Positions 320 through 14,371 of a DNA stretch of 16,942 bases are shown in pieces. The DNA lies in contig JANNXQ010000045.1 in assembly GCA_031409655.1 (NCBI GenBank), positions 1-16,942 of the forward strand, written 5' to 3'. Position numbers and translations under genes: made by a program. The notes beneath the pieces are model-generated. The model was not told the DNA's origin. It saw nothing but the letters and a program-made list of their open reading frames with translations, and ran no database searches. The first letter of the stretch is position 1. Every line of letters begins with the position of its first letter. The stretch is from Chthoniobacteraceae bacterium (lineage in GTDB: Bacteria > Verrucomicrobiota > Verrucomicrobiia > Chthoniobacterales > Chthoniobacteraceae).

Positions 320-1537
320 ATGAACCATCCACCAGCAAAGCAATCCGCAAATGCCCCGCTCGCAGCGCCGCCGGCGCTCGGGCCGCAGGGGCGCGCCGTC
401 GGCCTCGATGTCCACCCGGACACCTTCGCCGCCGCCATCCTCGAAGGCCGCGAGCCACTGGGCGCGCGCGTGCGGCTCAATGTCACCCAGCAGCCGCTGG
501 CGGCCCTCGGCGCCTGGGCCGCCCGGCACACCACCGCGGAGGATGTCCTCATCCTCGAAGCCAGCGCCAACAGCTTCGCCATCGCCGAACGCCTGACCGC
601 GCTCGGTCGCCAGGTCTATATCCTGGAGAGCCACCGCGCGGGGCAGATCGGCAAAAGCTATCTGGCCAATGACAAGGTCGATGCCGTGAAGATCGCGCGC
701 ATCTACCTGAGCGGCCTGGGCATCAAAGTCTGGCAGCCCGACCCGGAGACCCGGCAGCGCCGTGAGTTACTCTCCACCTACCAGCGTTGCGTGAAAGACA
801 GCACCCGCGCCCAGCAGCACCTGCGCAGCTTCCTCAATGAACATACCCTGCGCCTGCCCAAAGGCTTTCGCCTCTGCCGGCCCGAAGCGGGCGCGAGACT
901 GGTGACCCTCAAGGACTGGACGCCGCGCCAGAAGCTGCTCCTGCAGGAAATGCACGGCAGCCTGCTCGCCGCCCGCGAGCGGCGCACCCGGCTGCGCCGG
1001 ATGATGGCCCTGGAGATCGAGGAGACCCCCGACTTCCTGCGCCTCTATAAGCTGGCCGGACTGAACCTGGTCACCACCTATGCGCTGGTCGCCATCATCG
1101 GCAACATCGCCCGCTTCGCCCACAGCAAGAACCTCGTCAGTTACCTCGGCCTCAACCCCAGCGTCGTCGAGAGCGGCAACTTCGAGGGCGGCGGCGCCTT
1201 GCACGGGCACGGCCGCGGCAGGCTGCGCGCCCTGCTCATCCAGGCCAGCAAACGGCTGCTGACCTGCGTGAACCCCCTGCAAAAGTGGGGCCTCAGCGTC
1301 GCCCTGCACCGCGGGACCAACAAAGCCGCCGTGGCCGTCGCCCGCAAGCTGACCGTGGCCGTCTGGCACGTCCTGCAAGGCCACTGGAACAAAGCCCTGG
1401 AGGAAAACAGCACACTCCTGACCAAGCTCAGCAAACTGGCCACCGACCTCGGTCTGCCGACCCTCAAGGAGCTGGGTTACGCGAGCAAGATCGCCTTCCA
1501 GGAGCAGAAGTTAGAGGTGCTGCGCACGCATCTTTGA
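320..1537 (+). CDS. IS110-family transposase/recombinase (RuvC-like DEDD domain plus C-terminal Tnp domain), 405 aa
   Basis: GLDVH, LILEAS and NDKVDAVKIA give the DEDD tetrad. SYLGLNPSVVESG carries the conserved serine motif. KAAVAVARKL is the typical C-terminal motif. Confidence 0.95.
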   Translation: MNHPPAKQSANAPLAAPPALGPQGRAVGLDVHPDTFAAAILEGREPLGARVRLNVTQQPLAALGAWAARHTTAEDVLILEASANSFAIAERLTALGRQVYILESHRAGQIGKSYLANDKVDAVKIARIYLSGLGIKVWQPDPETRQRRELLSTYQRCVKDSTRAQQHLRSFLNEHTLRLPKGFRLCRPEAGARLVTLKDWTPRQKLLLQEMHGSLLAARERRTRLRRMMALEIEETPDFLRLYKLAGLNLVTTYALVAIIGNIARFAHSKNLVSYLGLNPSVVESGNFEGGGALHGHGRGRLRALLIQASKRLLTCVNPLQKWGLSVALHRGTNKAAVAVARKLTVAVWHVLQGHWNKALEENSTLLTKLSKLATDLGLPTLKELGYASKIAFQEQKLEVLRTHL

Positions 1538-1598
1538 GGATGGGGAAACACGTTTCCCCAAACCCCTTCTCTAGGGGGAACAGCAGGTCCCATCCCTC
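1536..1598 (+). other. Hairpin cluster in the IS right end
   Basis: GGGGAAAC-ac-GTTTCCCC (1542-1559) and CCCCT-tctct-AGGGG; GGATGGG (1538-1544) can alternatively pair with CCCATCC (1589-1595). Confidence 0.5.
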
Positions 1599-1652
1599 TG
1601 TCGCCCCCGCAGAACCCACCAAAGAAAAAGACGATGACTTACAGATAACCTA

Positions 1653-1658
1653 TTGACT
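1653..1658 (+). promoter_or_regulatory. Outward-facing -35 box (TTGACT) at the IS110 right end, candidate half of a circle-junction promoter
   Basis: TTGACT lies 11 bp before the CT core. Joining it to the left end puts GTATGT/TATGTG (7-13) 17-18 bp downstream, a weak -10. Junction promoters are established for IS110 circles. Confidence 0.5.
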
Positions 1659-1669
1659 TAACCACATGC

Positions 1670-1688
1670 CTGCAGCGCGTGGTTAGGC
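1670..1688 (-). other. Integron attC left half (R'' plus L''), interrupted by the IS110
   Basis: Four bp after the stop codon of the minus-strand gene the sequence reads GCCTAAC (RYYYAAC, R''), 5-bp spacer CACGC, then GCTGCAG (L''-like), then IS sequence. Confidence 0.75.
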
Positions 1689-1692
1689 GACT

Positions 1693-2241
1693 TCATTTGT
1701 AACTTGGATCTCCATAGCGAAGTTCGTTGAAAGAGTAGGATGCGTCGTAATGACCTGTAAGTGGCTCGAAGCGTCCGTCGGCTCGGCGTTTGAGGAAGGC
1801 GAGCCACTTCGGTTGATACTTAACGTGCTCGACCTCTCCGGTGGGCTTGCCGTCTTTCAGTTCGCGCTTCTCGTAGGTGATGAATCCGATTGGGAATCGT
1901 ATGAAGCTGGCTCCGTTGTTGATTCCGTTCACGCGCTTGGAGTATGTGAAGTGTAGGATCGACAGTTCCTTGGGCGTGTCCCCAGTCGTCTTGAATACGG
2001 AGTGAACCTTGAAGCTGGTATTCGTGGCGTCGAAGTCGGCCTGCGGGTGGCCATAAGTGTTGCCGGGGAACTCATCTTTTGCCGGTTGGTTCTCGATTGC
2101 TTCGAGGACCACGACGATGTCGGCTTCGGCAAGGAGCTTGTCGTATGGCCAAAGCGGCACCAAACGACCGAAGGCGGAAGTGCCCGCGACGATGGCAACG
2201 AGCAGAATCGCGAGAGAGCGGCTAGAAAAAGGCTGGTTCAT
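1693..2241 (-). CDS. Hypothetical secreted protein, 182 aa, probable integron gene cassette
   Basis: ATG at 2241 gives MNQPFSSRSLAILLVAIVAGTSAFG, a signal-peptide-like N-terminus. GC is lower than in the flanks, the leader is very short and an attC R'' follows directly. The ORF-track extension to 2382 is intron RNA. Confidence 0.8.
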   Translation of the reverse strand: MNQPFSSRSLAILLVAIVAGTSAFGRLVPLWPYDKLLAEADIVVVLEAIENQPAKDEFPGNTYGHPQADFDATNTSFKVHSVFKTTGDTPKELSILHFTYSKRVNGINNGASFIRFPIGFITYEKRELKDGKPTGEVEHVKYQPKWLAFLKRRADGRFEPLTGHYDASYSFNELRYGDPSYK

Positions 2242-2263
2242 AGGAGAGACGCGCAAAGTCACA

Positions 2264-2704
2264 GTAGAGTAGGCGAGAAGCGATTGCGGGGGCAAGCTCT
2301 TCGCTGGCGCTGCCGTTTTCGCTGCCGACCCCTCATCAAACCGTGCAGGCGGTTTTCCCGCACACGGCTTTCCGAGTTCCATTCATGCGCTTGGCCTTTG
2401 GCTTTCATGCAGCGGTCCACGCCGCACTGCGCGGCGGGGTCCAGAGTCCGTAGTGGGTTTCGAGTTGCTCGTTCGGGTAGTGTTTGTGGAGGCCGCCGCG
2501 GCAACCGTGTTTGCGCCACAACCAGCGGCGCAGGCGGTTGCAGGTCCAGTAACGCTGCCGGCTCATCACCGCGGCACTGTTGCCGTAATGGAAGTAACCG
2601 CTCCAGCCCCGGACCACGGCATTGACCTCGCGCACCACCTCCGCAATGGCTCGCCATTGGGTGTGGTGGTTGAGGATGTGGCTCACTTTCCCGCGCAGCG
2701 ATCG
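2264..2704 (-). mobile_element. Group II intron, 3' fragment (end of the intron-encoded ORF, domain V, domain VI, 3' splice site)
   Basis: Domain V AAGCCGTGTGCGGGAAAACCGCCTGCACGGTTT (about 2370-2338, AGC triad) followed by GATGAGGGG; typical 3' end CCTACTCTAC ending at 2264. Confidence 0.9.
2405..2704 (-). pseudogene. C-terminal maturase (X/thumb) fragment of a group II intron reverse transcriptase; RT core missing, no endonuclease domain
   Basis: EVNAVVRGWSGYFHYGNS...RLRRWLWRKH is the maturase X-domain signature, and the stop lies just upstream of domain V. Confidence 0.88.
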
Positions 2705-2713
2705 TCCCCGAGT

Positions 2714-2792
2714 GGGGTCAACTCTTGAAACTTGAATACACCCTTCATCCCCTGCACAACTTCCAGCGTGTCATGTTTCAAGCGTTGACCCC
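2714..2792. repeat. REP-like inverted repeat with 22-bp arms
   Basis: GGGGTCAACTCTTGAAACTTGA (2714-2735) versus the reverse complement of 2771-2792, GGGGTCAACGCTTGAAACATGA: 20/22 identical. Confidence 0.85.
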
Positions 2793-3392
2793 GTTCCCCC
2801 CGAGGATCTGACGTTTGCCATCGGGGCCGATGCCCACGGCGATGAGCACAGCGCAGTCGAGCACGCGGCCGCCGTGGCGGATTTTTTCGTAGCGGGCATC
2901 GAGGAGGACGTAGGGGAAGGCACCGAGCGGGCGGGTGCGCCAGAGGAGCAGATCGGCGTCGAGGCGGGCGGCGCACTGGCTGACCTGAGTGGAACTTACG
3001 GAGGTGCCGCAAAGCTCTTCGAGGATGGTGGTGACTTTGCGAGTGGAGACGCCCTGGACATACATTTCGGCAAGCGCGAGGATCAGCGCCTGCTCGCTGC
3101 GGATGCCCTTCTCGAGGGCCGAAGGATAGAACTCGACCTCGCCGCGCACCTGCGGGATGGCGAAGGTGATGGGGCCAAGGCGGGTCTTGAGGGTCTTGGC
3201 TTTGAAGCCGTTGGCGTGGCCCAGGCGGGCGTCGGTGCGCTCGAAAGGCCGGGCTCTGAGCACGTGGGAACGCTCGGCCTGCATGGCCTCGTTGACGAGC
3301 AAGCGAAGCCCCTCGGCAAAGCCGTCGGAGCCTTCGTCATTGAGGAGTTGCAGCACGGATTGGAGGAGTTGAGGATGATGGAGGTGGGTCAT
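2778..3392 (-). pseudogene. IS256-family (Mutator-like) transposase, 3'-truncated at about 2799
   Basis: ERT..R.G.ANG...TLKTRLG.I...IPQVR, LAEMYVQGVSTRKV, YVLLDARYEK and LIAVGI..DGKRQILG are IS256 motifs. Similarity ends at about half the normal length. Confidence 0.92.
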
Positions 3393-3460
3393 GTGTGGTG
3401 TTGGTGTTGGTGTTTTCGAGACACCCCGACCTGAACCCATGTGACCCACCCTCTGCCAGA

Positions 3461-3564
3461 CTGGCTTCGCGTCGCAGCTCCCCTGCGGGAGCGGCTGCGC
3501 TCGGCTCGCTACGCTCGCCTTCGCTCCGCCGCTCCCGCAGGGGAGCTGGGCATCGCGAAGCCAG
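3461..3564. repeat. Long GC-rich hairpin within the IS256 leader
   Basis: Perfect 21-bp stem 3475-3495/3528-3548 plus outer 11-bp stem 3461-3471/3554-3564. Confidence 0.85.
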
Positions 3565-3567
3565 CGC

Positions 3568-3596
3568 AATCTACAGAAAGACTTTTACACCCCCTC
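3568..3596 (-). mobile_element. IS256 left terminal inverted repeat
   Basis: Minus strand GAGGGGGTGTAAAAGTCTTTCTGTAGATT resembles IS256-family ends and lies about 200 bp upstream of the transposase start. Confidence 0.65.
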
Positions 3597-3923: not shown

Positions 3924-4018
3924 GATTTGCCGGTGCCGCCCGTGCCTGCGGTCGCCGCGTGAAGTTCAAGCTCGACGAGAACCTGCCGGAATCACTGGCC
4001 GCTGAACTTTCTGTGCAG
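3924..4018 (+). pseudogene. Remnant of a second DUF433/DUF5615 gene junction, inverted relative to the intact pair
   Basis: ...PPVPAVAA* overlaps GTG-KFKLDENLPESLAAEL at 3959; compare ...PTPAGVAA* / MKFKFDENLPSDL in the intact pair. Confidence 0.65.
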
Positions 4019-4848
<830 letters not shown>

Positions 4849-4925
4849 AAGGCAGCGCTCGGTGCCGTCAGAGGATCGGCGTTTCCGGCAGGGGGCACCA
4901 GGGTCAGCTCCAGAAAATCGCTGTT

Positions 4926-5102
4926 TCACTTGGCGGGCTGGTCGGAGCGGGCGCGCAACTCGGCTTGCCGCTGGCGTGCCACCTCCCCCAAGCGCTCGTA
5001 ATGCGTAACCAACTGCTCAGGCGTGAGGTCTTTGGTCTGCTCGTAGATGCGGGCTTGGGCGCGGCGCTTCGTTTTCACGCATTCGTATTCTTCAAGTTTC
5101 AT
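4926..5102 (-). CDS. Small hypothetical protein, 58 aa, putative antitoxin partner of the PIN protein (not in the ORF track)
   Basis: MKLEEYECVKTKRRAQARIYEQTKDLTPEQLVTHYERLGEVARQRQAELRARSDQPAK*; start overlaps the PIN gene end by 11 bp. Confidence 0.75.
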   Translation of the reverse strand: MKLEEYECVKTKRRAQARIYEQTKDLTPEQLVTHYERLGEVARQRQAELRARSDQPAK

Positions 5103-5550
5103 AGGCGATGACCTCGGCGGGGGTGTTGATGCTGATGGTGTCGAAACCGTTGATCAGGTTGACGCCATTATACAGCGGGATTTTGTCGAAGTGAACGATG
5201 TGTCTGAAATTCCAACTGACGATGCAGCGGCAGTGCTGCGCGCTGGCGAGGGCGACGTGCAGGGCGTCGGTGGCCCATTTCGGCGTGACCACGCCGGCTT
5301 GCAGGTAGGCATCGCGCAGGCGCACGGCTTCGACAGAGACGCTGATGAATTCCGCCCACGGCAAATGTTCCTCATAGACCAGGCGGACGCGCTCCGGCGC
5401 GTCCTGCAGTTCATCGACGACCACGGGGGAGACGACCAACTGGAAGCGTCCGGCTTTGACCTGGAAGAAAAACTCCTGGCTCGTCGCGTCGATCCCCGGA
5501 TCGAAGACGCCGCCGTACACGGAGGTGTCGGCATAAACGCGGATGGGCAT
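5092..5550 (-). CDS. PIN-domain protein (VapC-like toxin), 152 aa
   Basis: RVYADTSVYGG, S.VV.DEL, DALHVALA and IVSWNFRHIV motifs; start at ATG 5550. Confidence 0.9.
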   Translation of the reverse strand: MPIRVYADTSVYGGVFDPGIDATSQEFFFQVKAGRFQLVVSPVVVDELQDAPERVRLVYEEHLPWAEFISVSVEAVRLRDAYLQAGVVTPKWATDALHVALASAQHCRCIVSWNFRHIVHFDKIPLYNGVNLINGFDTISINTPAEVIAYET

Positions 5551-5557
5551 GGGAGCG

Positions 5558-5586
5558 ATGATACTGGTACGCGCTGCGCGAAGCAA
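5558..5586 (-). promoter_or_regulatory. Sigma70-type promoter for the PIN operon, probably giving a leaderless mRNA
   Basis: TTGCTT, 17 bp, TATCAT, then 7 nt to the ATG. Confidence 0.55.
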
Positions 5587-5632: not shown

Positions 5633-7660
5633 TCACCACTGGAAGCCCAGCGCATCGAGGCGGGCCTGGCGGTCGGGCAGGAGCGTGCCTTTGCGGCGGG
5701 CTCGGCGTTGGCCGGAGACCCATTCGGCGAGGACCCTTAGACCGGGGGCGTCGCAGTTAGGGCGGCAGTGGCCGTGGGTGGCTTGGAACTCCACTAACTC
5801 GGCGTAGCGCTCTTCCCACACGGCGGCGTTTCTCGCGGAGAGGCGGCGGTCGCCCGTCCAGGAGAAGCCGATGTCGTCGAGGCGGGCAATGCGTTCGGCG
5901 CTCACCTTGCCGCGCGCTCTGAGGCCGCGCTGATTGTGCGCCCAGTCGGATAGTGCCGGGTCTTCGGGAAGCGGGCGCGGGATGACGCAGTGCCCGAAGC
6001 GTTCGCGGAACTGCGCGCATTGCTCGAGGCGTTGCTGCCAGCGGGCTTCGAGCTCGGGGCTGGGTTCGGTGCGCACGTTCTTCCATACGGTCATGTCCCA
6101 AGGGAAACCGACGGCCTCGAGGCGGGCTTCCCGTTCGGGCCGGAGCTTGCCGGTGCGGTGCAGCACCCGCTGGGTCTCGGCCCACCGATAGAGGAAGAGC
6201 TCCCGCCGTGCGGAGAGACGGAAGGTTCCGTGCTGCTCCTGCCATTGCATCAGCTGGGTGAAGTTCGCATCCCAATCCGCATCCCACTCGGCATTGAGGG
6301 CCTCCTCGCCGTCCCAGGAAAAGGCGATCTCCTCCAGGCGGGCCACGCGCTCGGCGGAGAGGCGGGCGCTGGCGTAGAGGATGCGCTGACTCGCGACCCA
6401 CGGCCCCAGGCCCGGCTCCTCCTGCCAAGTGCCGGGCACGCGGCAATGGCCGAACCGTTCGCGGAAGGCGAGCAGCCGCTCGAAATGCTGATCCCAGCGC
6501 TGGCGCTCGCTGCGGTAGGGATCGGCCGGGCCGAGCCCGAGGGCGGCGAGGCGCTCGCACCGGTGCGGCCGCAGGTGTCCGGCGCGCCACGTGTCGCGCT
6601 GCGCTTTCACCCAGCGGCGCAGCGGCACGCACTGAGCGGGATGGTCCGGCACATCGCAGTGCCCATGCGCCGCGTGGAATTCGGCCAATTGCGAAAACTT
6701 TTTCATCCAGCGCGCTTCGTGGATCGCCGCCGCCGGGCGCGGATCGCTCCAGACAAAGCCAAGGGCCTCGAGACGCGCCTGCCGCTCGCGAGTGAGCCGG
6801 CTCTCCTTCTTCATCTTGCGCTGGCGGCACACCCAGGCCGCGAAGCGCCGATCCTCCGTCCAGTGGGCGGGCACGCGCACGTGGCCGAAGCGCTCGCGGA
6901 AGTGCAGCAGTTTCTGAAAGCGGCGCTCCCAGCGGTCCGCTTCGTGCCCATCCCAGTCGGGATTGTGGCACCGCGCCCCGCGCGCATTCCACACGAACCC
7001 CGCCTCGTCCAGCCGCCGCGCGAGCTCGGGGTCGAGCGAATGGTGCCGGCGCGCCTTGCGCTGCGTCCGCACCCACCTGCCCAGCTTCAGATTTTCCCGC
7101 CAGGCATTCGGCACCAGGCTATGGCCATAGGCCCGCTGAAAGGCCAGGAGCTGCGCATAACGTTCGTCCCACGTGAGCTCCCTCGTCGCCGGCTCGGGAT
7201 CGCGCGCGGCGGCGAGGTGGCGGGGCTCCCAGCAAAAGTTGATCTTTTCGAGCTGGCTGGCGCGCCTTTTCGCGAGGCGGCCCGCGCGGCGCAGGGCCCG
7301 CTGGAAGCGCACCCAGCCGGCCAGCGCCTGATCCTCCGGCCAGCGCACCGGCACCAGGCAATCGCCGTGGATGCGTTCGTAGGCGGCGAGGCGTTCGAAC
7401 ATTTCATCCCAATCCTCCTGCTGCCGATCGCAGTCGAAGCCGATCTCCGCGAGTTGCGCCCGGCGTTGCTTTTCCAGCAGGCCCGCTGCGGAGAGCCGCC
7501 GCTGCCGCACCACCCAGCGGCTCAGCGGTACGCCGCGCCCACCACCCGCGGGCACCTGGCAATGGCCGTGCGCCCGACGGAACTCCTGCAATTGGCGGAA
7601 CTGCCTCTCCCAGATCATCAGGTAGGAGAGCCCGGGGCCGGTGCGGATCGTCTCGGTCAT
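5633..7660 (-). CDS. Protein composed of 9 tandem helicase-associated (HA, PF03457-like) domains with no helicase domain, about 675 aa
   Basis: Nine copies of W...F..L..F....GHC.VP......L..WV..QR......L...R...L...GF.W. The start is uncertain (7660 preferred; the frame is open to 7795). Confidence 0.9.
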   Translation of the reverse strand: MTETIRTGPGLSYLMIWERQFRQLQEFRRAHGHCQVPAGGGRGVPLSRWVVRQRRLSAAGLLEKQRRAQLAEIGFDCDRQQEDWDEMFERLAAYERIHGDCLVPVRWPEDQALAGWVRFQRALRRAGRLAKRRASQLEKINFCWEPRHLAAARDPEPATRELTWDERYAQLLAFQRAYGHSLVPNAWRENLKLGRWVRTQRKARRHHSLDPELARRLDEAGFVWNARGARCHNPDWDGHEADRWERRFQKLLHFRERFGHVRVPAHWTEDRRFAAWVCRQRKMKKESRLTRERQARLEALGFVWSDPRPAAAIHEARWMKKFSQLAEFHAAHGHCDVPDHPAQCVPLRRWVKAQRDTWRAGHLRPHRCERLAALGLGPADPYRSERQRWDQHFERLLAFRERFGHCRVPGTWQEEPGLGPWVASQRILYASARLSAERVARLEEIAFSWDGEEALNAEWDADWDANFTQLMQWQEQHGTFRLSARRELFLYRWAETQRVLHRTGKLRPEREARLEAVGFPWDMTVWKNVRTEPSPELEARWQQRLEQCAQFRERFGHCVIPRPLPEDPALSDWAHNQRGLRARGKVSAERIARLDDIGFSWTGDRRLSARNAAVWEERYAELVEFQATHGHCRPNCDAPGLRVLAEWVSGQRRARRKGTLLPDRQARLDALGFQW

Positions 7661-7797
7661 ATGGTCTCGAAGGGGAATAGGTGGTTGCGTGGTGAAAGTC
7701 TGGTTGGTGACTTTCGCAAACGAGCAATTGCAGGATCCGTGCCAAAGGATGCTCTCCCTCCCTCGTTTTGCGTGCCAGCTTGGGAGAATTCGCATCT

Positions 7798-8055
7798 TTC
7801 GGGCTCTAACAGAGTCAGAAAGATGGCCGGAGAAGCTCTTAGAGCTCTAAATGGGCCGGAATGCATAATTTCCATACAACTAGAGCTCTAAGAGGGCTTC
7901 CGGCCTCGCAGGGTTGAGAATGGGAACTCTAAGTCTCTCAAAATTGCCCTTTCCAAGGCACTTAGAGTTCTAAGTGGGTTGGAAAGGACAATTCTGGCGC
8001 GTTTAGAGTTCTAAGAGCTGCAAAATTTCCCTTTCCGGCACGGTTAGAGTTTTTC
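7798..8055. repeat. Array of seven 12-bp palindromic repeats (consensus TTAGAGYTCTAA) with 29-bp spacers, exact 41-bp period
   Basis: Copies start at 7798, 7839, 7880, 7921, 7962, 8003 and 8044. Confidence 0.92.
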
Positions 8056-8247
8056 GCGGTTGGGAAATTTGGCGGTGGCTTCCCTTTGGGGCCGAGGAGC
8101 GTCCTAACCCCGGTGGATGGCGCGCTCCGCCGCGCGATGGGATGCTCTGCGCGCAGCGCCATGCTGGGAAAGATGGGCCTGCGGCGGCGGTGTGGCATGG
8201 CGCGGCGGAGCGCACCATCCACCGAGGCAGAATATTTCAAAAGGCGG

Positions 8248-9582
8248 TTAGGGCAGTTCGATGTGATCGCGCCAGCCGGGCGGGGGGACGAAGCGGCGAA
8301 GGATCGACACGGCGTCGAGGCCGTTCGGGAAGTGGCGGCCATTGAGCGTCAGCGGGACGGTGGAGGGATGGAAATCCGCGAAGGGGGCGTAGGGGAAGCG
8401 GCGGTGATTGGCGAGCAGGCGGATTTTTTCGGCGTCGTAACCCATGAGCTTCGCCATGGCGAAGTCGATGAGGAAGGGATTGCGCGCGGCGAGCAGGACA
8501 TTTGCGGCGACCGGGAGCGGTTGCAGCGGGCCATTGCCTTCGCCGGCGACGAGTCCGTCCATGATCGAAAGGACGGTGCGCTGCGGTTCGGCGCGCAGCG
8601 GGCCGCCATCCGCGTGGGCCATGAGGATGATCATGTTCAGGTCATAGACCATGCGCCAGATGGAGTCGTTCCCATACCAGGAGCCGGAGCCGACGTAGAA
8701 TTGCCCGCCGAGATTTTCCCGTGTGCCCACGGTCTCGATGCCGCGCGCTTTTTTGATCAGCTCCCAACCGGTCTTCAGGGTCTTAAAGAGGAACTTTGAC
8801 TTTTTCTGAAAGCGCTCCCGCAGCCGCGCCTGCCAGTAGAAGACCTTTGAGACATCGTCGGGAAACTCATCACCGCCCTGCGCCGGGCAGCCGAGTTGGT
8901 GATGCACGAGATGCGCCTTGGAGCCATTGATGCCGACGAGATTTTTCAGCGCGCCGGTGATGCCCGTTTTCTGGTGCGTCTTCATCTTGGGTAAGTTGAT
9001 GAAGAAGTCCGCCTCCAGGATGGTCCGCGCGATGAGGTAACGATGCAGGCCTTTGCGATGCACGCTCACGGTCTCCGCGGGATCGTAGTCCGAGACGCGA
9101 AAGGAGTCCGCATTGTGGCTCACTTCTTCGAGCAGGCTGCTGCCGTCGATAATGATCTCGGTGTAGCCGAGCGGATCGCCCGGATGCCCGGAGTCCAGCT
9201 CCATGAAGCCGCCGACGGGCCGCCAGCGTTCGCGGCGGAGATCGAGAAACTGGATCGTCGGTCCGGTGCGTTCGCGATATTTCTCGATGAGTCGGAAGAC
9301 CCCGCTCTGCCGGATGAGCAGGTCCCAATCGCAGGTCTGCAACGGCACATCGCCCACGGTGATTTTTTCCAGCCCCGGATACTTCGCGAGACATGCCTCG
9401 ATCGTGGCCTCGATGAGCGCGGTGCTCGTGACCAGCGCCTCGATGGGAAACTCCGGGCGCTCGGCGTGTTTTACCCAATTCGGTTTCAGCACCACTTTCC
9501 GAAACTCGCCGTCGGGCAGGTTTCGGGAGACGAAGGTGCGCAGATCGGGGTCCGCGCCCAGAGCGATGTCGAGTGCAATCAT
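8248..9582 (-). CDS. DUF362 domain protein (putative Fe-S protein), about 444 aa
   Basis: VVLKPNWV, ITVGDVP, ADFFINLPKMKTHQKTGITGALKNLVG and DGLVAGEGNGP motifs. Confidence 0.88.
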   Translation of the reverse strand: MIALDIALGADPDLRTFVSRNLPDGEFRKVVLKPNWVKHAERPEFPIEALVTSTALIEATIEACLAKYPGLEKITVGDVPLQTCDWDLLIRQSGVFRLIEKYRERTGPTIQFLDLRRERWRPVGGFMELDSGHPGDPLGYTEIIIDGSSLLEEVSHNADSFRVSDYDPAETVSVHRKGLHRYLIARTILEADFFINLPKMKTHQKTGITGALKNLVGINGSKAHLVHHQLGCPAQGGDEFPDDVSKVFYWQARLRERFQKKSKFLFKTLKTGWELIKKARGIETVGTRENLGGQFYVGSGSWYGNDSIWRMVYDLNMIILMAHADGGPLRAEPQRTVLSIMDGLVAGEGNGPLQPLPVAANVLLAARNPFLIDFAMAKLMGYDAEKIRLLANHRRFPYAPFADFHPSTVPLTLNGRHFPNGLDAVSILRRFVPPPGWRDHIELP

Positions 9583-9665: not shown

Positions 9666-9761
9666 AACGCCAAACTTCAAACGCCAAAGGACTCGCGCAC
9701 CCGGAGCAGTCGCGCACTCTTCGTTTAAAGTTTGGCGTTTAGCGTTTGAAGTTTGGCGTTT
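9666..9761. repeat. Inverted heptamer tandem repeats (AAACGCC/AAACTTC type) forming a hairpin
   Basis: 9666-9688 versus the reverse complement of 9738-9760: 22/23 identical. Confidence 0.85.
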
Positions 9762-9800
9762 ACTCCGCGCTCCGCGTTCGGACTCGATCCAGCCCACCAG

Positions 9801-10781
9801 TCAAGCGCGGTGCCGCCAGCGGTCGAGGGCGACGGCGGCGATGATGATGCCGCCGGTGACGATCTCCTGCACCCAGTTCGCGAGGTTCATTTTGGTGCAG
9901 CCATTCGCAACCACGGTCATGACCAGGGCGCCGATCACGGAGCCGAAGACGGAGCCTTCGCCGCCATTCAAGCTCGCGCCGCCGATGACGACGGCGGCGA
10001 TGACGGCGAGTTCGAGGCCGGCGGCGGTGGTGGGATCGCCGACGGTGAGATAGGAAAATTGCAGCACTCCGGCGATGCCCGCGAAGGCGAGGCCGACGGT
10101 GTAGATGAGGAGTTTCGTCCTCTGCACGGGCACGCCGCAGAGCCGCGCGGTCTGTTCATTGGACCCGATGGCGAAGACGTGACGACCGAAGCGCGTGTAG
10201 CGCAGCAGCGCGGCGACGAGCACGGTGAGCGCGAGCATGAGCCAGACGCCGGGGGGAAGAAGCATCCAGCGATTCGTCGGGCGGAGGCTGGTCAGGAGGC
10301 CATTGAGCCAGGTGGTCGGTGCGGAGACGATGGACTCGTGCGCGAGCCCCTTCGCCGCGCCGCGCAGGGCGCCCCACATTCCCAAAGTGACGATGAACGG
10401 CGTGAGCCCGAGCCGCGTGATGAGCAGGCCAATGAGGGCTCCGCAAAGCGCGCCGACGCCGATGCCGCCGAGGGCCGCCAGGAGCGGCGGGACGCCGAGC
10501 GAAAGTAGCAGCGCCACGGCAACCGTGCAGAGCGCGATATTTGAACCGATGGAAAGATCGATGCCGCCGGAGATGATGATGAGCGTCATGCCGAGTGCCG
10601 CGGTGCCCACGACGGCGGTCTGGAGGAGCATGATCTGAAAATTGTCCGCGGTGAGAAAGCTGTGCGGGCGCAGTACGCCGAAGAGCGCGACGACGAAGAT
10701 GAGTCCGAGCAGCGGACCGAGCCGCGCAAGGAGCAGGGGCGAGCGTGGCCTCGGCCATGATGCGGTGCTCGTCGCATTCAC
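9801..10781 (-). CDS. Sugar ABC transporter permease (RbsC-like); start uncertain
   Basis: GMTLIIISGGIDLSIG, PFIVTLG, T.FGRHVFAIGSNE..ARLCGV and ELAVIAAVVIGGASL.GG.G motifs; strongly hydrophobic. Confidence 0.92.
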   Translation of the reverse strand: MNATSTASWPRPRSPLLLARLGPLLGLIFVVALFGVLRPHSFLTADNFQIMLLQTAVVGTAALGMTLIIISGGIDLSIGSNIALCTVAVALLLSLGVPPLLAALGGIGVGALCGALIGLLITRLGLTPFIVTLGMWGALRGAAKGLAHESIVSAPTTWLNGLLTSLRPTNRWMLLPPGVWLMLALTVLVAALLRYTRFGRHVFAIGSNEQTARLCGVPVQRTKLLIYTVGLAFAGIAGVLQFSYLTVGDPTTAAGLELAVIAAVVIGGASLNGGEGSVFGSVIGALVMTVVANGCTKMNLANWVQEIVTGGIIIAAVALDRWRHRA

Positions 10782-12219
10782 TCACAGGTCGCGCGGGGCC
10801 GAGTCGGCCGCGGGACATGACGGCGATGCGATCGCAGATGCCGAGCAGCTCTGGCAGGTAGCTGCTGACGATGAGCACGGCGCGGCCAGCGCAAGCGAGC
10901 TCGTCGATGAGCCGGTAGATCTCGGCCTTGGAACCGACGTCGATGCCGCGCGTCGGTTCGTCCAGCAGCAGGACATCGACGCCGTGTTCGAGCAGCCGCG
11001 CGAGGGCTATCTTCTGCTGATTGCCGCCAGAGAGATCGCCGACGCGCTGCTCGGGATCGCGGCAGCGGATGCCGAGTTTCGCGATCCATTTCTGACTCGC
11101 TGCGGACTGCGCGGCGGGCCGCACAGTGGCGCTGAGGCTGGAAAGGGTGACATTGTCCGCGACGCTCAGGGAAAGGGCGAGGCCCTCGGTCTTGCGATCC
11201 TCGCTGACGAGGCCGACGCCCTGCGCCCAGCGTTGTGCGGGAGAAGCAGGACCGAGGTGCGTCTTCACGGTGATCCGACCGGAGCGCACGGGATCGAGGC
11301 CGAAGATCGCGCGGAGCAATTCCGTGCGGCCAGCGCCGATGAGGCCGGCGATGCCGAGCACTTCGCCGCGGTGCAACGTGAGCGAAGCGCGCGCGGGCTT
11401 GGACACGCCGGCGACATCGGCGAGATCGAGCACGGCCTCGCCGGGCGTGCGCGGGGAGCGCGGATAAAGATCGGCCACCGAGCGACCGACCATGAGCGCG
11501 ACGATCTCCGCATTCGTCGCGCGGGCGGTGTCGCCAGAGCCGACGCTGCGCCCATCGCGCAGGACGGTGAAGCGATCGGAGAGCGCGCGGACTTCTTCGA
11601 GAAAGTGCGAGATGTAGATGATGCCGAGGCCGCGCGCTTTCAGTCGGCGGACGAGATCGAAGAGCCGCTGAATGTCATTCTGCGCGAGACTGCTCGTCGG
11701 TTCATCGAGCACCAGCACGCGCGCGCCCACGGCGACAGCGCGCGCGATTTCCACGAGCTGCTGTTCGGCGATGGCCAGCCGATGCACGGGTGTCTCGGGC
11801 CGGATGTCGCTGCGTCCGAGCTGCGCCATGGCCTCGGTCGCGCGACGGCGCATTTCTTTCCAGTCCACGAAAGGCCCGCGCGTCGGCTCCATCCCGAGGA
11901 CGATGTTTTCCATGACGGAAAGATGCCGCGCGAGCGAGAGCTCCTGATAGATCATCGAGACCCCGGCGCGACGTGCGGCGAGCGGATCTGCGGGCGCGTA
12001 ATTTTCGCCCCCGAGCCACATCCGACCGGCATCGGGCGAGTGCGCGCCGGAGAGGACTTTCATGAGCGTGCTTTTGCCCGCGCCGTTCTCGCCGACGAGG
12101 GCGAGGACCTCCCCGGCGCGCACGGTGAGATCGACGCCGTCCAGAGCCACGGTCGCGCCGAAGCGTTTGGTCACGCCTTCCATGATGAGGAGGTCCATCG
12201 AGGGCGGGGGGGAGGCCAT
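10156..12219 (-). CDS. Sugar ABC transporter ATP-binding protein (RbsA-like, two ABC domains); homologous part ends near 10740 but the frame stays open to 10156
   Basis: GENGAGKST Walker A, VLVLDEPT, LSGGNQQK and LLLDEPTRGIDVG. Confidence 0.9.
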   Translation of the reverse strand: MASPPPSMDLLIMEGVTKRFGATVALDGVDLTVRAGEVLALVGENGAGKSTLMKVLSGAHSPDAGRMWLGGENYAPADPLAARRAGVSMIYQELSLARHLSVMENIVLGMEPTRGPFVDWKEMRRRATEAMAQLGRSDIRPETPVHRLAIAEQQLVEIARAVAVGARVLVLDEPTSSLAQNDIQRLFDLVRRLKARGLGIIYISHFLEEVRALSDRFTVLRDGRSVGSGDTARATNAEIVALMVGRSVADLYPRSPRTPGEAVLDLADVAGVSKPARASLTLHRGEVLGIAGLIGAGRTELLRAIFGLDPVRSGRITVKTHLGPASPAQRWAQGVGLVSEDRKTEGLALSLSVADNVTLSSLSATVRPAAQSAASQKWIAKLGIRCRDPEQRVGDLSGGNQQKIALARLLEHGVDVLLLDEPTRGIDVGSKAEIYRLIDELACAGRAVLIVSSYLPELLGICDRIAVMSRGRLGPARPVSECDEHRIMAEATLAPAPCAARSAARTHLRRRALRRTAPAQLSHRGQFSDHAPPDRRRGHRGTRHDAHHHLRRHRSFHRFKYRALHGCRGAATFARRPAAPGGPRRHRRRRALRSPHWPAHHAARAHAVHRHFGNVGRPARRGEGARARVHRLRTDHLAQWPPDQPPPDESLDASSPRRLAHARAHRARRRAAALHALRSSRLRHRVQ

Positions 12220-12264
12220 GCACTAAGAGGAGCGGCTATGACTCAACATCCGAAACTCGGGATT

Positions 12265-12378
12265 AACGTCGAACATCGAACATCGAACTTTGAACATCGA
12301 ACATTGAATGAACCTGTCGGAGGCTCGTGGGTTCCTTAGGATGTTGGGGCGGGAGTTCGATGTTCGATGTTCGACGTT
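12265..12378. repeat. Inverted heptamer tandem repeats (AACATCG)n
   Basis: Six heptamers at 12265-12306; 12355-12378 is the perfect reverse complement of 12265-12288. Confidence 0.9.
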
Positions 12379-12380
12379 TC

Positions 12381-13367
12381 TTACATTAACGGCAGCCCCA
12401 GAAGCTCCTTGATCTCCGGCGTGCTGAGATTCTCCGTCGTCACCAGCGCCACTCCGCTATCCACCACCGCCGGCACTTTCTCTCCACGCCGCTGCGCCAT
12501 CATCGCCTTCACGCCTTCATAGCCCATCTTCGTCGGATTCTGCGCGACGAGCGCCTGGATCTCTCCTTTTTGCAGCGCCTCGACGAGCGGGGGCGAGGTG
12601 TCGAAGCCGACAAACTTAGCCTTCCCCACGAGATTATTCTGCCGCAGCGCGAGGAGCATTCCGAAGGTCAGCGATTCATTGGAGCAGAAGATGCCGTCGG
12701 CTTCGCGGAGGAGTTCGAGCATATTCATCGCCGTGGTCTGCGCCTCGCTCGCGGTCGCACCGCCGAAGCGATTTTCCACGAGCATCTGGAGGTCCGGGTG
12801 CTGCTTCATCACGGAGAGAAATCCTTCCTCGCGTTCCACGGTGCTGGCCGAACCTTCCTGGTAACGCAGCAGGACCACCTTGCCTTTGCCGCCGAGCAAA
12901 CGCGCGAGTTCCTGACCGGCGATTTCGCCCCCGAGCCGATTGTTCGTGCCGACGTAGTTCACGAAATCCTTGCCCGCTTCGCCCTTGAGCGCGGAGTCGA
13001 TGATCACGACGGGAATCCCCTTCCCCATCGCGGCCTCCACGGGTCGGCGCAGGGCGATGTCATCAAGCGGCGCGAGGACGATGCCGCTCACGCCTTCCGA
13101 GGTGAATTGCTCGACGATCTTGATCTGCTCTGCGCGGTCACTCTCTTTGAGCGGCCCTTTCCAGAGGATCTCGACGCCGAGTTCCGCGCCCGCTTTGCGC
13201 GCCCCGGCTTCCACGGATTTCCAATGGACGTGGGTGGTGCCTTTCGGGATCACCGCGATCCGCTCCGCGCTGGTGCCGGGAGTGGCGCCGGAGGGCGGGG
13301 CTTTTTCGCAGGCGGCGAAAAGGGTGGCGGCGAGGCTGGCGAGCGGGAGGAGTCTGGGGAGGCGCAT
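12381..13367 (-). CDS. Sugar ABC transporter substrate-binding lipoprotein (RbsB-like), 328 aa
   Basis: Lipobox-like LFAAC; IAVIPKG, GIVLAPLD, GIPVVIIDS, VGFD and ALVAQNP.KMGY motifs. Confidence 0.92.
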   Translation of the reverse strand: MRLPRLLPLASLAATLFAACEKAPPSGATPGTSAERIAVIPKGTTHVHWKSVEAGARKAGAELGVEILWKGPLKESDRAEQIKIVEQFTSEGVSGIVLAPLDDIALRRPVEAAMGKGIPVVIIDSALKGEAGKDFVNYVGTNNRLGGEIAGQELARLLGGKGKVVLLRYQEGSASTVEREEGFLSVMKQHPDLQMLVENRFGGATASEAQTTAMNMLELLREADGIFCSNESLTFGMLLALRQNNLVGKAKFVGFDTSPPLVEALQKGEIQALVAQNPTKMGYEGVKAMMAQRRGEKVPAVVDSGVALVTTENLSTPEIKELLGLPLM

Positions 13368-13466
13368 GGCGAAGGTTCTGCCGTGCCGGAGCGGGGCTGA
13401 CGAGCCTGAGTTGCGCAGGCGGATTTCGCGCTGGCGCCCGCTTCAAGATGGGCAGAACATTTCTCC

Positions 13467-14240
13467 ATGAAGACGAACCGTTCCCCTATCCTCACCACCA
13501 CCATCGCGATTGCCGCTGCGGCTCTCGTGACGCTCACTGCTCCTGCCCAAGCCGGAAAGACGCTGGAAGAGCGCAAGGCAGAAACCAAAACCGCGATCAT
13601 GGCGAAACGCTCGGAAGGTACTTCGGCGTTTTATCAGGAGCTGGAAAAGCAGGGTCGCGCGCTGATCGCGGAGTTTCCCGACAAGGCGGAGGCCTACGAA
13701 TACTTGATGAGCGTGGCTTCGCAGGCTGATCCGAATAAGGCGCGGGCGATCGCCGGGGAGATCAATGCGGGCAACGCGCCGGACGCGGCGAAGGCGAAAG
13801 CGAAAGCGCTACTGGGCAAACTCGATGCGGTGGGCAAGCCGCTCGACATCAAGTTCACCGCCATCGACGGGCGCGCGGTGGATCTCGCGGCGATGAAGGG
13901 CAAGGTAGTGCTCGTGGATTTCTGGGCGACGTGGTGCGGGCCGTGTGTCGCGGAACTGCCGAAGGTGAAAGCCGCCTACGAACAACTCCATGCGAAAGGC
14001 TTCGAGATCGTCGGGATCAGCTTTGATTCCGACAAGGGCAAGCTGGAGAGTTTCGTGAAAGACAAGGCGATGGCCTGGCCGCAGTTCTTCGACGGGAAGG
14101 GCTGGAAAAACGAATACGGCGTGAAGTACGACATTCGTGGCATCCCGGCGATGTGGCTCGTGGATAAGAAGGGCAATCTGCGCGACATGGCGGCGCGGCA
14201 GGATCTCGAATCGAAAGTGGAAAAGCTGCTCGCGGAGTAG
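13467..14240 (+). CDS. TlpA/ResA-family thiol-disulfide oxidoreductase with signal peptide, 257 aa
   Basis: KGKVVLVDFWATWCGPC, GFEIVGISFD and GIPAMWLVDKKG. Confidence 0.93.
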   Translation: MKTNRSPILTTTIAIAAAALVTLTAPAQAGKTLEERKAETKTAIMAKRSEGTSAFYQELEKQGRALIAEFPDKAEAYEYLMSVASQADPNKARAIAGEINAGNAPDAAKAKAKALLGKLDAVGKPLDIKFTAIDGRAVDLAAMKGKVVLVDFWATWCGPCVAELPKVKAAYEQLHAKGFEIVGISFDSDKGKLESFVKDKAMAWPQFFDGKGWKNEYGVKYDIRGIPAMWLVDKKGNLRDMAARQDLESKVEKLLAE

Positions 14241-14260
14241 CCAGAGGCGCGCAGGCCGTA

Positions 14261-14371
14261 GTGGCACAGGTTTCCAGCCTGGAGTGGTCATGCGGGCATC
14301 CTGCCTGCATCTCCGGGATGAGCCGGCGCCGGCAGGATGCCTCCGCGACCACAACAGGCTGGAAGCCTGCG
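14261..14371. repeat. Nested REP-like palindromes downstream of the TlpA gene
   Basis: Outer arms CACAGGTTTCCAGCCTG / CAGGCTGGAAGCCTGCG; inner arms GGCATCCTGCC / GGCAGGATGCC. Confidence 0.7.

Follow-up and report, generated by a model that had tools for sequence, protein, structure and literature searches.

A non-coding row of 41-bp units with inverted 6-bp ends stands upstream of a predicted sigma-54 promoter in DNA of a Chthoniobacteraceae bacterium, and the same row recurs once elsewhere in the genome. It lies in the window, the whole stretch of 16,942 nucleotides that was analysed. The array is real, its anatomy is odd, and it belongs as a variant among phased intergenic arrays. With a probability of roughly 0.45, it is a bendable, helically phased platform at the DNA level for a dimeric or ring-forming protein that would act on the adjacent promoter.

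Anatomy and symmetry of the array

Seven 12-bp palindromic junctions start at 7798, 7839, 7880, 7921, 7962, 8003 and 8044. The exact 41-bp steps leave six spacers of 29 bp each, which confirms the arrangement described in the initial annotation. At the background rate of such sites in the genome, about 1e-24 occurrences of six sites in register would be expected by chance per period genome-wide. Contigs from other runs of the same study cross the whole array with no differences (run X2 over 7655-8226, run X3 over 7612-8110), and no joint falls inside the array in the contigs of three runs, so the array is not an assembly artefact, with the proviso that contigs drop rare variants. The features are as follows.

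5633-7660, minus strand: gene for an HA-only protein of 675 aa, with nine PF03457 domains and no helicase
7729-7744, minus strand: predicted promoter of the HA gene, of the sigma-54 (-24/-12) type, at a distance of 25 bp from the array
7769-8055, no strand: whole element common to both genomic copies (blastn, 83% identity over 285 bp, one gap)
7769-7797, minus strand: unit U0, degenerate, common to the second copy on contig C235, whose homology stops here
7798-7809, no strand: junction 1, inward half CTCTAA alone intact
7804-7844, minus strand: unit U1, a weak call (p=0.015)
7845-7885, minus strand: unit U2, reverse orientation
7886-7926, no strand: unit U3, of the same length, spacer not alignable to the consensus
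7927-7967, plus strand: unit U4, forming a long inverted pair with U5
7968-8008, minus strand: unit U5, reverse
8009-8049, plus strand: unit U6, forward
8044-8055, no strand: junction 7, inward half TTAGAG alone intact, degenerate to about 8090
8108-8227, no strand: REP-like hairpin that belongs to a dispersed family of its own (75 loci at E<=1e-5), a neighbour of the array and not part of it
8248-9582, minus strand: DUF362 gene, the resident upstream neighbour

Given that the edge junctions retain the inward half alone, the unit measures 41 bp and carries inverted ends of 6 bp, and it is not a palindrome plus a spacer. The 12-bp palindrome arises at every meeting of two units, and the units are joined both head-to-head and head-to-tail. 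Five of the seven junctions are degenerate. The initial annotation held that the spacers are conserved in length and not in sequence; the first part stands for all six, and the second does not, as spacers 2, 4, 5 and 6 are homologous, with 15-19 of 29 positions identical when oriented (leave-one-out profile, shuffle p<0.0002 each). Spacer 1 matches the unit consensus weakly in reverse orientation, and spacer 3 fits it in neither direction (p=0.69 and 0.50). The orientation of spacers 1 to 6 is thus mixed, namely R (weak), R, ?, F, R, F, and only about 35-65% of spacer positions are shared between units. Inverted neighbour pairs are formed by U4/U5, with 29 of 40 positions in Watson-Crick pairs around junction 5, and by U5/U6. 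The left edge of the element starts abruptly at 7769 and the right side decays, and U0 ends in a bare sigma-54 -24 box (TGGCACG, 7777-7771) that has no -12 box.

Well-kept units contain four half-sites of 6 bp (YTCYRR or YYRGAR) separated by 5, 7 and 5 bp, that is, 6-5-6-7-6-5-6. Two kinds of dyad therefore alternate every ~20.5 bp, and the centre of the second lies 20-21 bp from each junction. The 17-bp dyad YTCYRR-N5-YYRGAR fits 19 of the 28 half-units in the two arrays at two mismatches or fewer, 11 of them with none. It is not enriched in the genome outside the arrays, which speaks against a regulon, and its use as a dispersed operator was ruled out on the same grounds.

The AA/TT steps of the array have a period of 10.2-10.25 bp, and the fourth harmonic is dominant for the W, AA/TT and SS signals of the window copy. 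The AA/TT harmonic exceeds that of spacer shuffles with the junctions kept (p=0.004) and of one shared column permutation (p=0.015); the W and SS signals are not significant against the same nulls (p=0.05-0.27). Ranked by helical-period AA/TT power among 67,773 genome windows, the window array is 19th and the C235 array 6th and 28th, in a test that was post hoc and in which the power of every repeat with an n-turn period gathers at the helical harmonic. Folding is strong on both strands (z of -6.2 and -8.8), and self-complementarity inside the units is weak (26/66, p=0.005).

The second copy and the wider distribution

The second array lies at 52731-52370 of contig C235, and the part in common with the window element is 52731-52448. 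The two copies begin at the same base and agree in unit order and orientation over six units, after which the C235 copy carries two further forward units, such that exact register is held over six units in the window and eight on C235. A palindrome scan of the genome assembly (6.85 Mb, 306 contigs, 94.9% complete) at up to one mismatch gives seven sites, all within the two arrays, and the best 17 matches of a PWM scan are also all within them. The dispersed genome-wide repeat that the initial annotation had raised is not what was seen.

Between the copies, 13 of 72 junction positions (18%) and 30 of 174 spacer positions (17%) differ (p=0.86), and the junctions show no sign of stronger constraint than the spacers. 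Each symmetry centre has 0-1 compensatory changes, and the two copies are predicted to fold differently. One gap in 285 bp is not unusual when compared to 19 other duplicated pairs (P=0.31). The right end is decayed in both copies. The C235 array stands before an unrelated PATR-repeat gene, with the same polarity relative to its downstream gene as the window array. The PATR-repeat gene (9958-14285 of the C235 region L001) consists of four consecutive ORFs in different frames, and it may therefore be a pseudogene. Contig C235 carries no HA domain, and the C235 copy has no complete sigma-54 site, with a -24 box that is again bare of a -12 box.

Two variants were seen in other runs. Run X4 holds a variant of the right part of the array (7927-8129) with 11 differences and two gaps, four letters of which are common with the C235 copy, and run X2 holds a variant of the 5' end of the HA gene (7491-7684) with 24 differences and four gaps. 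These are possibly strain variants or a third copy.

Searches of other genomes, in sets of relative, family, class and phylum genomes that overlap, gave no homologous array. A DNA search of 60 relatives gave none, and in 400 class genomes it gave seven matches of 20-35 bp (E of 0.002-0.01) that were taken as chance. Pattern searches gave no arrays in 150 family genomes and none in 400 phylum genomes. A further pattern search of family genomes gave ten single matches with two mismatches against ten control matches, and the seven that were inspected are coding-like singletons. A GTDB scan gave two matches, one an AT-rich 20/21-bp repeat and the other a single site; a metagenome scan gave seven, none in an array. 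Viral scans gave no matches in one case and 18 in another, none with a junction run, and a viral scan for HA relatives gave none. Phage and plasmid scans, a check that the initial annotation had proposed for the spacers, gave no phage match and one chance plasmid match. Elsewhere in the genome, the longest spacer matches are 13-15 nt, at chance level. The array is so far confined to one species, on search patterns that need close sequence and a mostly 41-bp register and so would miss diverged arrays.

The same genome carries many unrelated arrays with periods of 21, 41, 42, 43, 63-64 and 83. Among TRF arrays of at least three copies and a period of at least 19, the periods not divisible by three are 41, 43 and 83 only, all near whole numbers of helical turns. 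Codons or heptamer repeats could also account for periods of 21 and 42, but not for 41, 43 and 83. Several other phased arrays share the top of the helical-period ranking. Phased arrays are seen at C8:17227-17556, where a 41-bp unit has two alternating palindromes about 20 bp apart, and at C38:1274-1624, C132:4619-4915, C178:8923-9130, C66:70032-70400, C253:19800-20064, C277:4247-4560, C128:1-230, C187:33500-33780, C271:21800-22070, C241:5780-6010 and others (L138-L154), in many cases shortly before genes for restriction-modification, toxin-antitoxin or small FN3-type proteins. From 20 regions chosen by eye, 11 neighbours were scanned with Pfam; five had no match, and the others are an FN3 protein, a C-5 methylase, a type I restriction subunit, an N6-methylase fragment, a nucleotidyltransferase and a PIN toxin. 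Of 21 phased arrays, 3 have a relaxed sigma-54 site that lies within 400 bp and points away from the array, a fraction at which a general link between phased arrays and sigma-54 was judged unconvincing. No description of such arrays was returned by a literature search.

Promoter, neighbourhood and HA gene

On the minus strand, the order is the DUF362 gene, the REP-like hairpin, the array, the -24/-12 site, the nine-domain HA gene, PIN, DUF433 and DUF5615. The window array lies about 85-330 bp upstream of the predicted start of the sigma-54-type promoter. The -24/-12 site is one of nine strict matches in 6.85 Mb and is directed at the start of the HA gene. By inspection, most strict matches stand shortly before an ATG, and genome-wide the motif is not enriched over spacing controls (9 matches as compared to 4-13). 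The genome encodes rpoN and ten strong Sigma54_activat matches. Scans for sigma-70 promoters and for terminators found none.

In two congeners, G002 and G003, DUF362 runs directly into a different gene, and neither the array nor the HA gene is there; in a third, G001, the contig ends inside DUF362. Downstream of the C235 neighbour, the array is absent at all three loci in G001 and G003. Both array sites are lineage-specific insertions or rearrangements, and both copies adjoin other repeat families.

Several further features of the window were recorded. Two toxin-antitoxin-like pairs (PIN with a short ORF, and DUF433 with DUF5615) lie directly downstream of the HA gene at 4019-5586, and the start of DUF5615 recurs inverted at 3951-3988. 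Between the two modules, at 4693-4791, the final 99 bases of the HA gene recur on their own at 85% identity, amounting to half an HA domain and the stop, with GGGTCAA-type repeats on both flanks. The region 320-3569 holds debris of mobile elements, namely an IS110 transposase, an IS256 (Mutator) fragment and a group II intron remnant (Rfam RF00029 at 2264-2372 and a maturase fragment). An ORF for a ribose-type ABC ATPase at 10156-12219 lacks a stop at the expected end and overlaps the permease gene, in a different frame, for about 190 codons. An intergenic inverted pair made of heptamer-repeat arms, another heptamer run and a further REP-like hairpin family are found at 12265-12378, 9722-9762 and 14267-14369, respectively.

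The start methionine of the HA protein is common to the orthologues P0002 and P0003, which together with P0004 make up the three close orthologues (67-76% identical, on short contigs). An alignment-based AF2 model has a pLDDT of 81.7 and a pTM of 0.29, such that the domains are confident and their arrangement is not; the single-sequence model has a pLDDT of 38.6. Foldseek with the alignment-based model gave nothing at E<=0.001, and a PDB sequence search with the protein returned 2KTA alone. A literature search gave no paper on HA-only repeat proteins. A second multi-HA gene of at least nine domains is present on contig C198 (L002), with its 5' side cut by the contig end.

The initial annotation had proposed a search for 41-bp-period arrays upstream of HA-only homologues. 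Such an array accompanies none of 20 HA-bearing regions in 16 relatives, a sample in which the HA genes are distant (32-47% identical) and three regions have little or no 5' flank. Elsewhere, HA repeats are mostly fused to helicases or standalone without arrays. Three relatives do carry arrays within about 1.3 kb of HA-bearing genes, at L078:6243-6515 (21-bp), L081:~9800 (64-bp) and L085:~9576 (43-bp), of a sequence unrelated to the window array. The array shows no exclusive link to the HA gene, and the HA protein is not required by the evidence. The phased binding array of about four turns suggested by the initial annotation is supported by the dyad symmetry, the 10.25-bp AA/TT period and the position upstream of a predicted promoter; the array-plus-HA-protein system suggested with it is not supported, given the C235 copy, which has no HA gene beside it, and the 20 distant regions.

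Readings of the array and comparison with known systems

In the platform reading, an enhancer-binding ATPase, bound in trans, would wrap the array DNA upstream of the sigma-54 promoter and switch on the HA gene and the downstream toxin-antitoxin genes. Symmetry of the unit would let a flipped unit keep its geometry, so that direct and inverted duplications at the palindromic junctions would be tolerated and changes of length would not. The block would have been copied once, about 17% divergence ago, to the front of the PATR-repeat gene, where it may be inactive, given that no complete sigma-54 site is left there. This reading is supported by the exact register despite the low share of common spacer positions, by the fit of half-units to the 17-bp dyad and the AA/TT helical signal, by the sigma-54 site at the HA start and the equal polarity of both copies to the downstream gene, and by the non-triplet TRF periods near whole turns. 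It is weakened by junctions no more constrained than spacers and a scarcity of indels between copies that is not significant, by the incomplete site on C235, the 3 of 21 arrays with a relaxed site and the unenriched promoter motif, by the 17-bp dyad being unenriched outside the arrays, the W and SS nulls and the post hoc period test, and by the lack of a homologue in any other genome searched. Seven to nine sites also exceed what known enhancers need. If the platform reading is true, the array is a compact case of a bacterial regulatory region set by helical geometry, with units invertible without loss, and it ties to an undescribed abundance of two- and four-turn arrays before defence, toxin-antitoxin and FN3-type genes in the lineage.

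The strongest competitor, plausible yet on balance doubtful, is a functionless or selfish intergenic mosaic of the BIME or NIME kind, in which slippage and fold-back template switching at the palindromic ends would have extended a quasi-palindromic unit into a row that was later copied once and is now in decay. Divergence of about 17% spread uniformly over junctions and spacers suggests as much, as do the decayed right ends, the inverted neighbour pairs, the other repeat families beside both copies at sites that are array-free in congeners, and the privacy of the array to this genome in every search. The mosaic sits less easily with units that have diverged to ~35-65% identity and kept register, when the adjoining REP-like family shows 0.2 gap openings per mismatch. 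Two arrays are also few against the more than 100 copies typical of REPs (in the part of PMC2817692 drawn on), no Y1/RAYT transposase is on C45, the window's contig, or on C235, and the internal 10.25-bp signal stands above spacer shuffles. If true, the mosaic would still show palindromic junctions building mixed-orientation arrays, a point of little weight.

The remaining readings follow in the order of an array read by the HA protein, symmetric recombination cassettes and processed RNAs. It is improbable that the nine-domain HA protein reads the array at about one HA domain per turn, acting on its own operon in cis and on the C235 gene in trans. The HA gene adjoins the array and is co-oriented with it, two congeners have neither of them downstream of DUF362, close homologues of either are absent from the sampled genomes, and PF03457 is said to bind DNA, going by the title of Mills 2013; the array-free distant HA regions, the second array with no HA gene nearby, the helicase-fused or array-free HA repeats elsewhere and the lack of a fixed domain arrangement in AF2 argue the other way. 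Equally improbable is a fuller version, a private protein-DNA pair whose nine HA domains, strung in a flexible chain, would track a nucleosome-like 10.25-bp code at one domain per turn over freely flippable symmetric units. Such a pair would govern both its own island and an adhesin-like gene far from it, as one branch of a class of promoters, found across the phylum, in which DNA geometry and not sequence is recognised. Were the HA protein the reader, this would be the first natural target for PF03457 arrays. It is still less probable that the junctions are symmetric recombination sites, used by a trans-acting recombinase to invert, duplicate and shuffle entire cassettes of 41 bp. Steps of whole units and their mixed orientation would follow from a perfectly symmetric junction, C235 carries two units more, tyrosine recombinases have 12 matches in the genome, and the dRS3 of NIMEs has been proposed to act in this way (PMC1797815, as excerpted), but order and orientation are the same in both copies over six units, the run contigs, which drop rare variants, have no joint inside the array, five junctions are degenerate, C45 has no recombinase and the sole one on C235 is 16 kb away. 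Least probable is transcription of the array and cutting into ~41-nt hairpin or guide RNAs of a TIGR-, CRISPR- or type III antitoxin-like kind. The strong folding of both strands, the fixed unit length and the weak self-complementarity within units are consistent with it. The initial annotation's idea of a template for processed 41-nt RNAs is disfavoured by the mixed orientation, the differing folds and the scarce compensatory changes, and further by spacers that are homologues and not unique guides, by the absence of a box C/D pattern or an Rfam match at the array and of a Nop domain in the genome, by the phage and plasmid results, and by a genomic CRISPR locus on another contig with an unrelated repeat.

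CRISPR repeats are about 23-47 bp, with unique spacers between them and cas genes beside them. The 12-bp junction and the homologous spacers do not fit a CRISPR array, and cas1 is on C279 with an unrelated repeat; there, at C279:1-230, a short CRISPR array at the contig end lies beside cas2/cas1 and is unrelated to the window array. Integron attC sites have RYYYAAC ... GTTRRRY cores with 5-6-bp spacers, and cassette ORFs lie between sites. This candidate was rejected, as inspection gave no fit to the cores, an attC is longer than 41 bp, ORFs are absent between the units and C45 has no integrase. A MITE was rejected because inspection of the right side gave no inverted copy of the left end. TIGR-Tas systems have a Nop-domain Tas protein and dual-spacer units with box C/D that all face the same way. 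TIGR arrays, as outlined in an excerpt of PMC12045711, resemble the array in their short, fixed period and in having one motif at the edge and another inside; the present array differs in having no Nop-domain protein or box C/D pattern, mixed orientation and homologous spacers. The Nop domain PF01798 has no matches in the genome, in a single-profile search that a divergent Tas could escape.

Units of the sopC centromere each carry a short inverted repeat for a dimer. The F-plasmid sopC (parS-F) is similar to the array in its tandem units of about four turns, with twelve of 43 bp according to part of PMC9178275, but it adjoins sopAB, and the units here are degenerate and of mixed orientation. 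ParB is absent from C45 and C235; ParB_N is found on C265 and C270 only, and none was among the 16 scanned window ORFs. Multi-site enhancers have a precedent in NorR at norVW, where several dyads precede a -24/-12 promoter and the DNA is possibly wrapped round a hexamer over ~130 bp (PMC2831303, in excerpt). In the same excerpt, norVW has three sites as compared to 7-9 junctions here, and here there is no adjacent activator gene and the second copy has no complete promoter. Of the features of sigma-54 enhancers, a predicted -24/-12 promoter is downstream in the window and not on C235, and RpoN and enhancer-binding ATPases are encoded.

Neisserial NIMEs, in the portion of PMC1797815 consulted, resemble the array in that their intergenic arrays have families of spacers set apart by a short palindromic junction, whose inverted arms are 6 bp long. 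However, the same text gives dRS3 as 20 bp with eight variable bases, RS as 19-214 bp and the elements as numbering hundreds, as compared to a gapless junction, 29-bp spacers and about 14 units here. BIMEs, in the section of PMC2817692 used, are extragenic imperfect palindromic units of about 40 bp with regular spacing and alternating or mixed orientation. Likewise, the array has 41-bp symmetric units between genes, in the 20-40 bp manner of REP palindromes, with regular spacing and an order (R,R,?,F,R,F,(F,F)) that is mixed and not strictly alternating. BIMEs are also candidate protein-binding DNA, and gyrase binding is described in part of PMC6379681. They differ in copy number, with two arrays here against more than 100 copies, and in that the units here abut without a linker. 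A cognate RAYT flanked by the repeat, as in REP/BIME families, is not seen beside either copy, and none of the 13 Y1_Tnp matches in the genome is on C45 or C235. The array thus fails a defining feature of each named family, whether copy number or RAYT, dRS3 or variable spacers, adjacent parAB, cas, or the Nop domain. In its working it would come closest to a multi-site enhancer or to a phased array of the sopC type, and in its build to a BIME or NIME.
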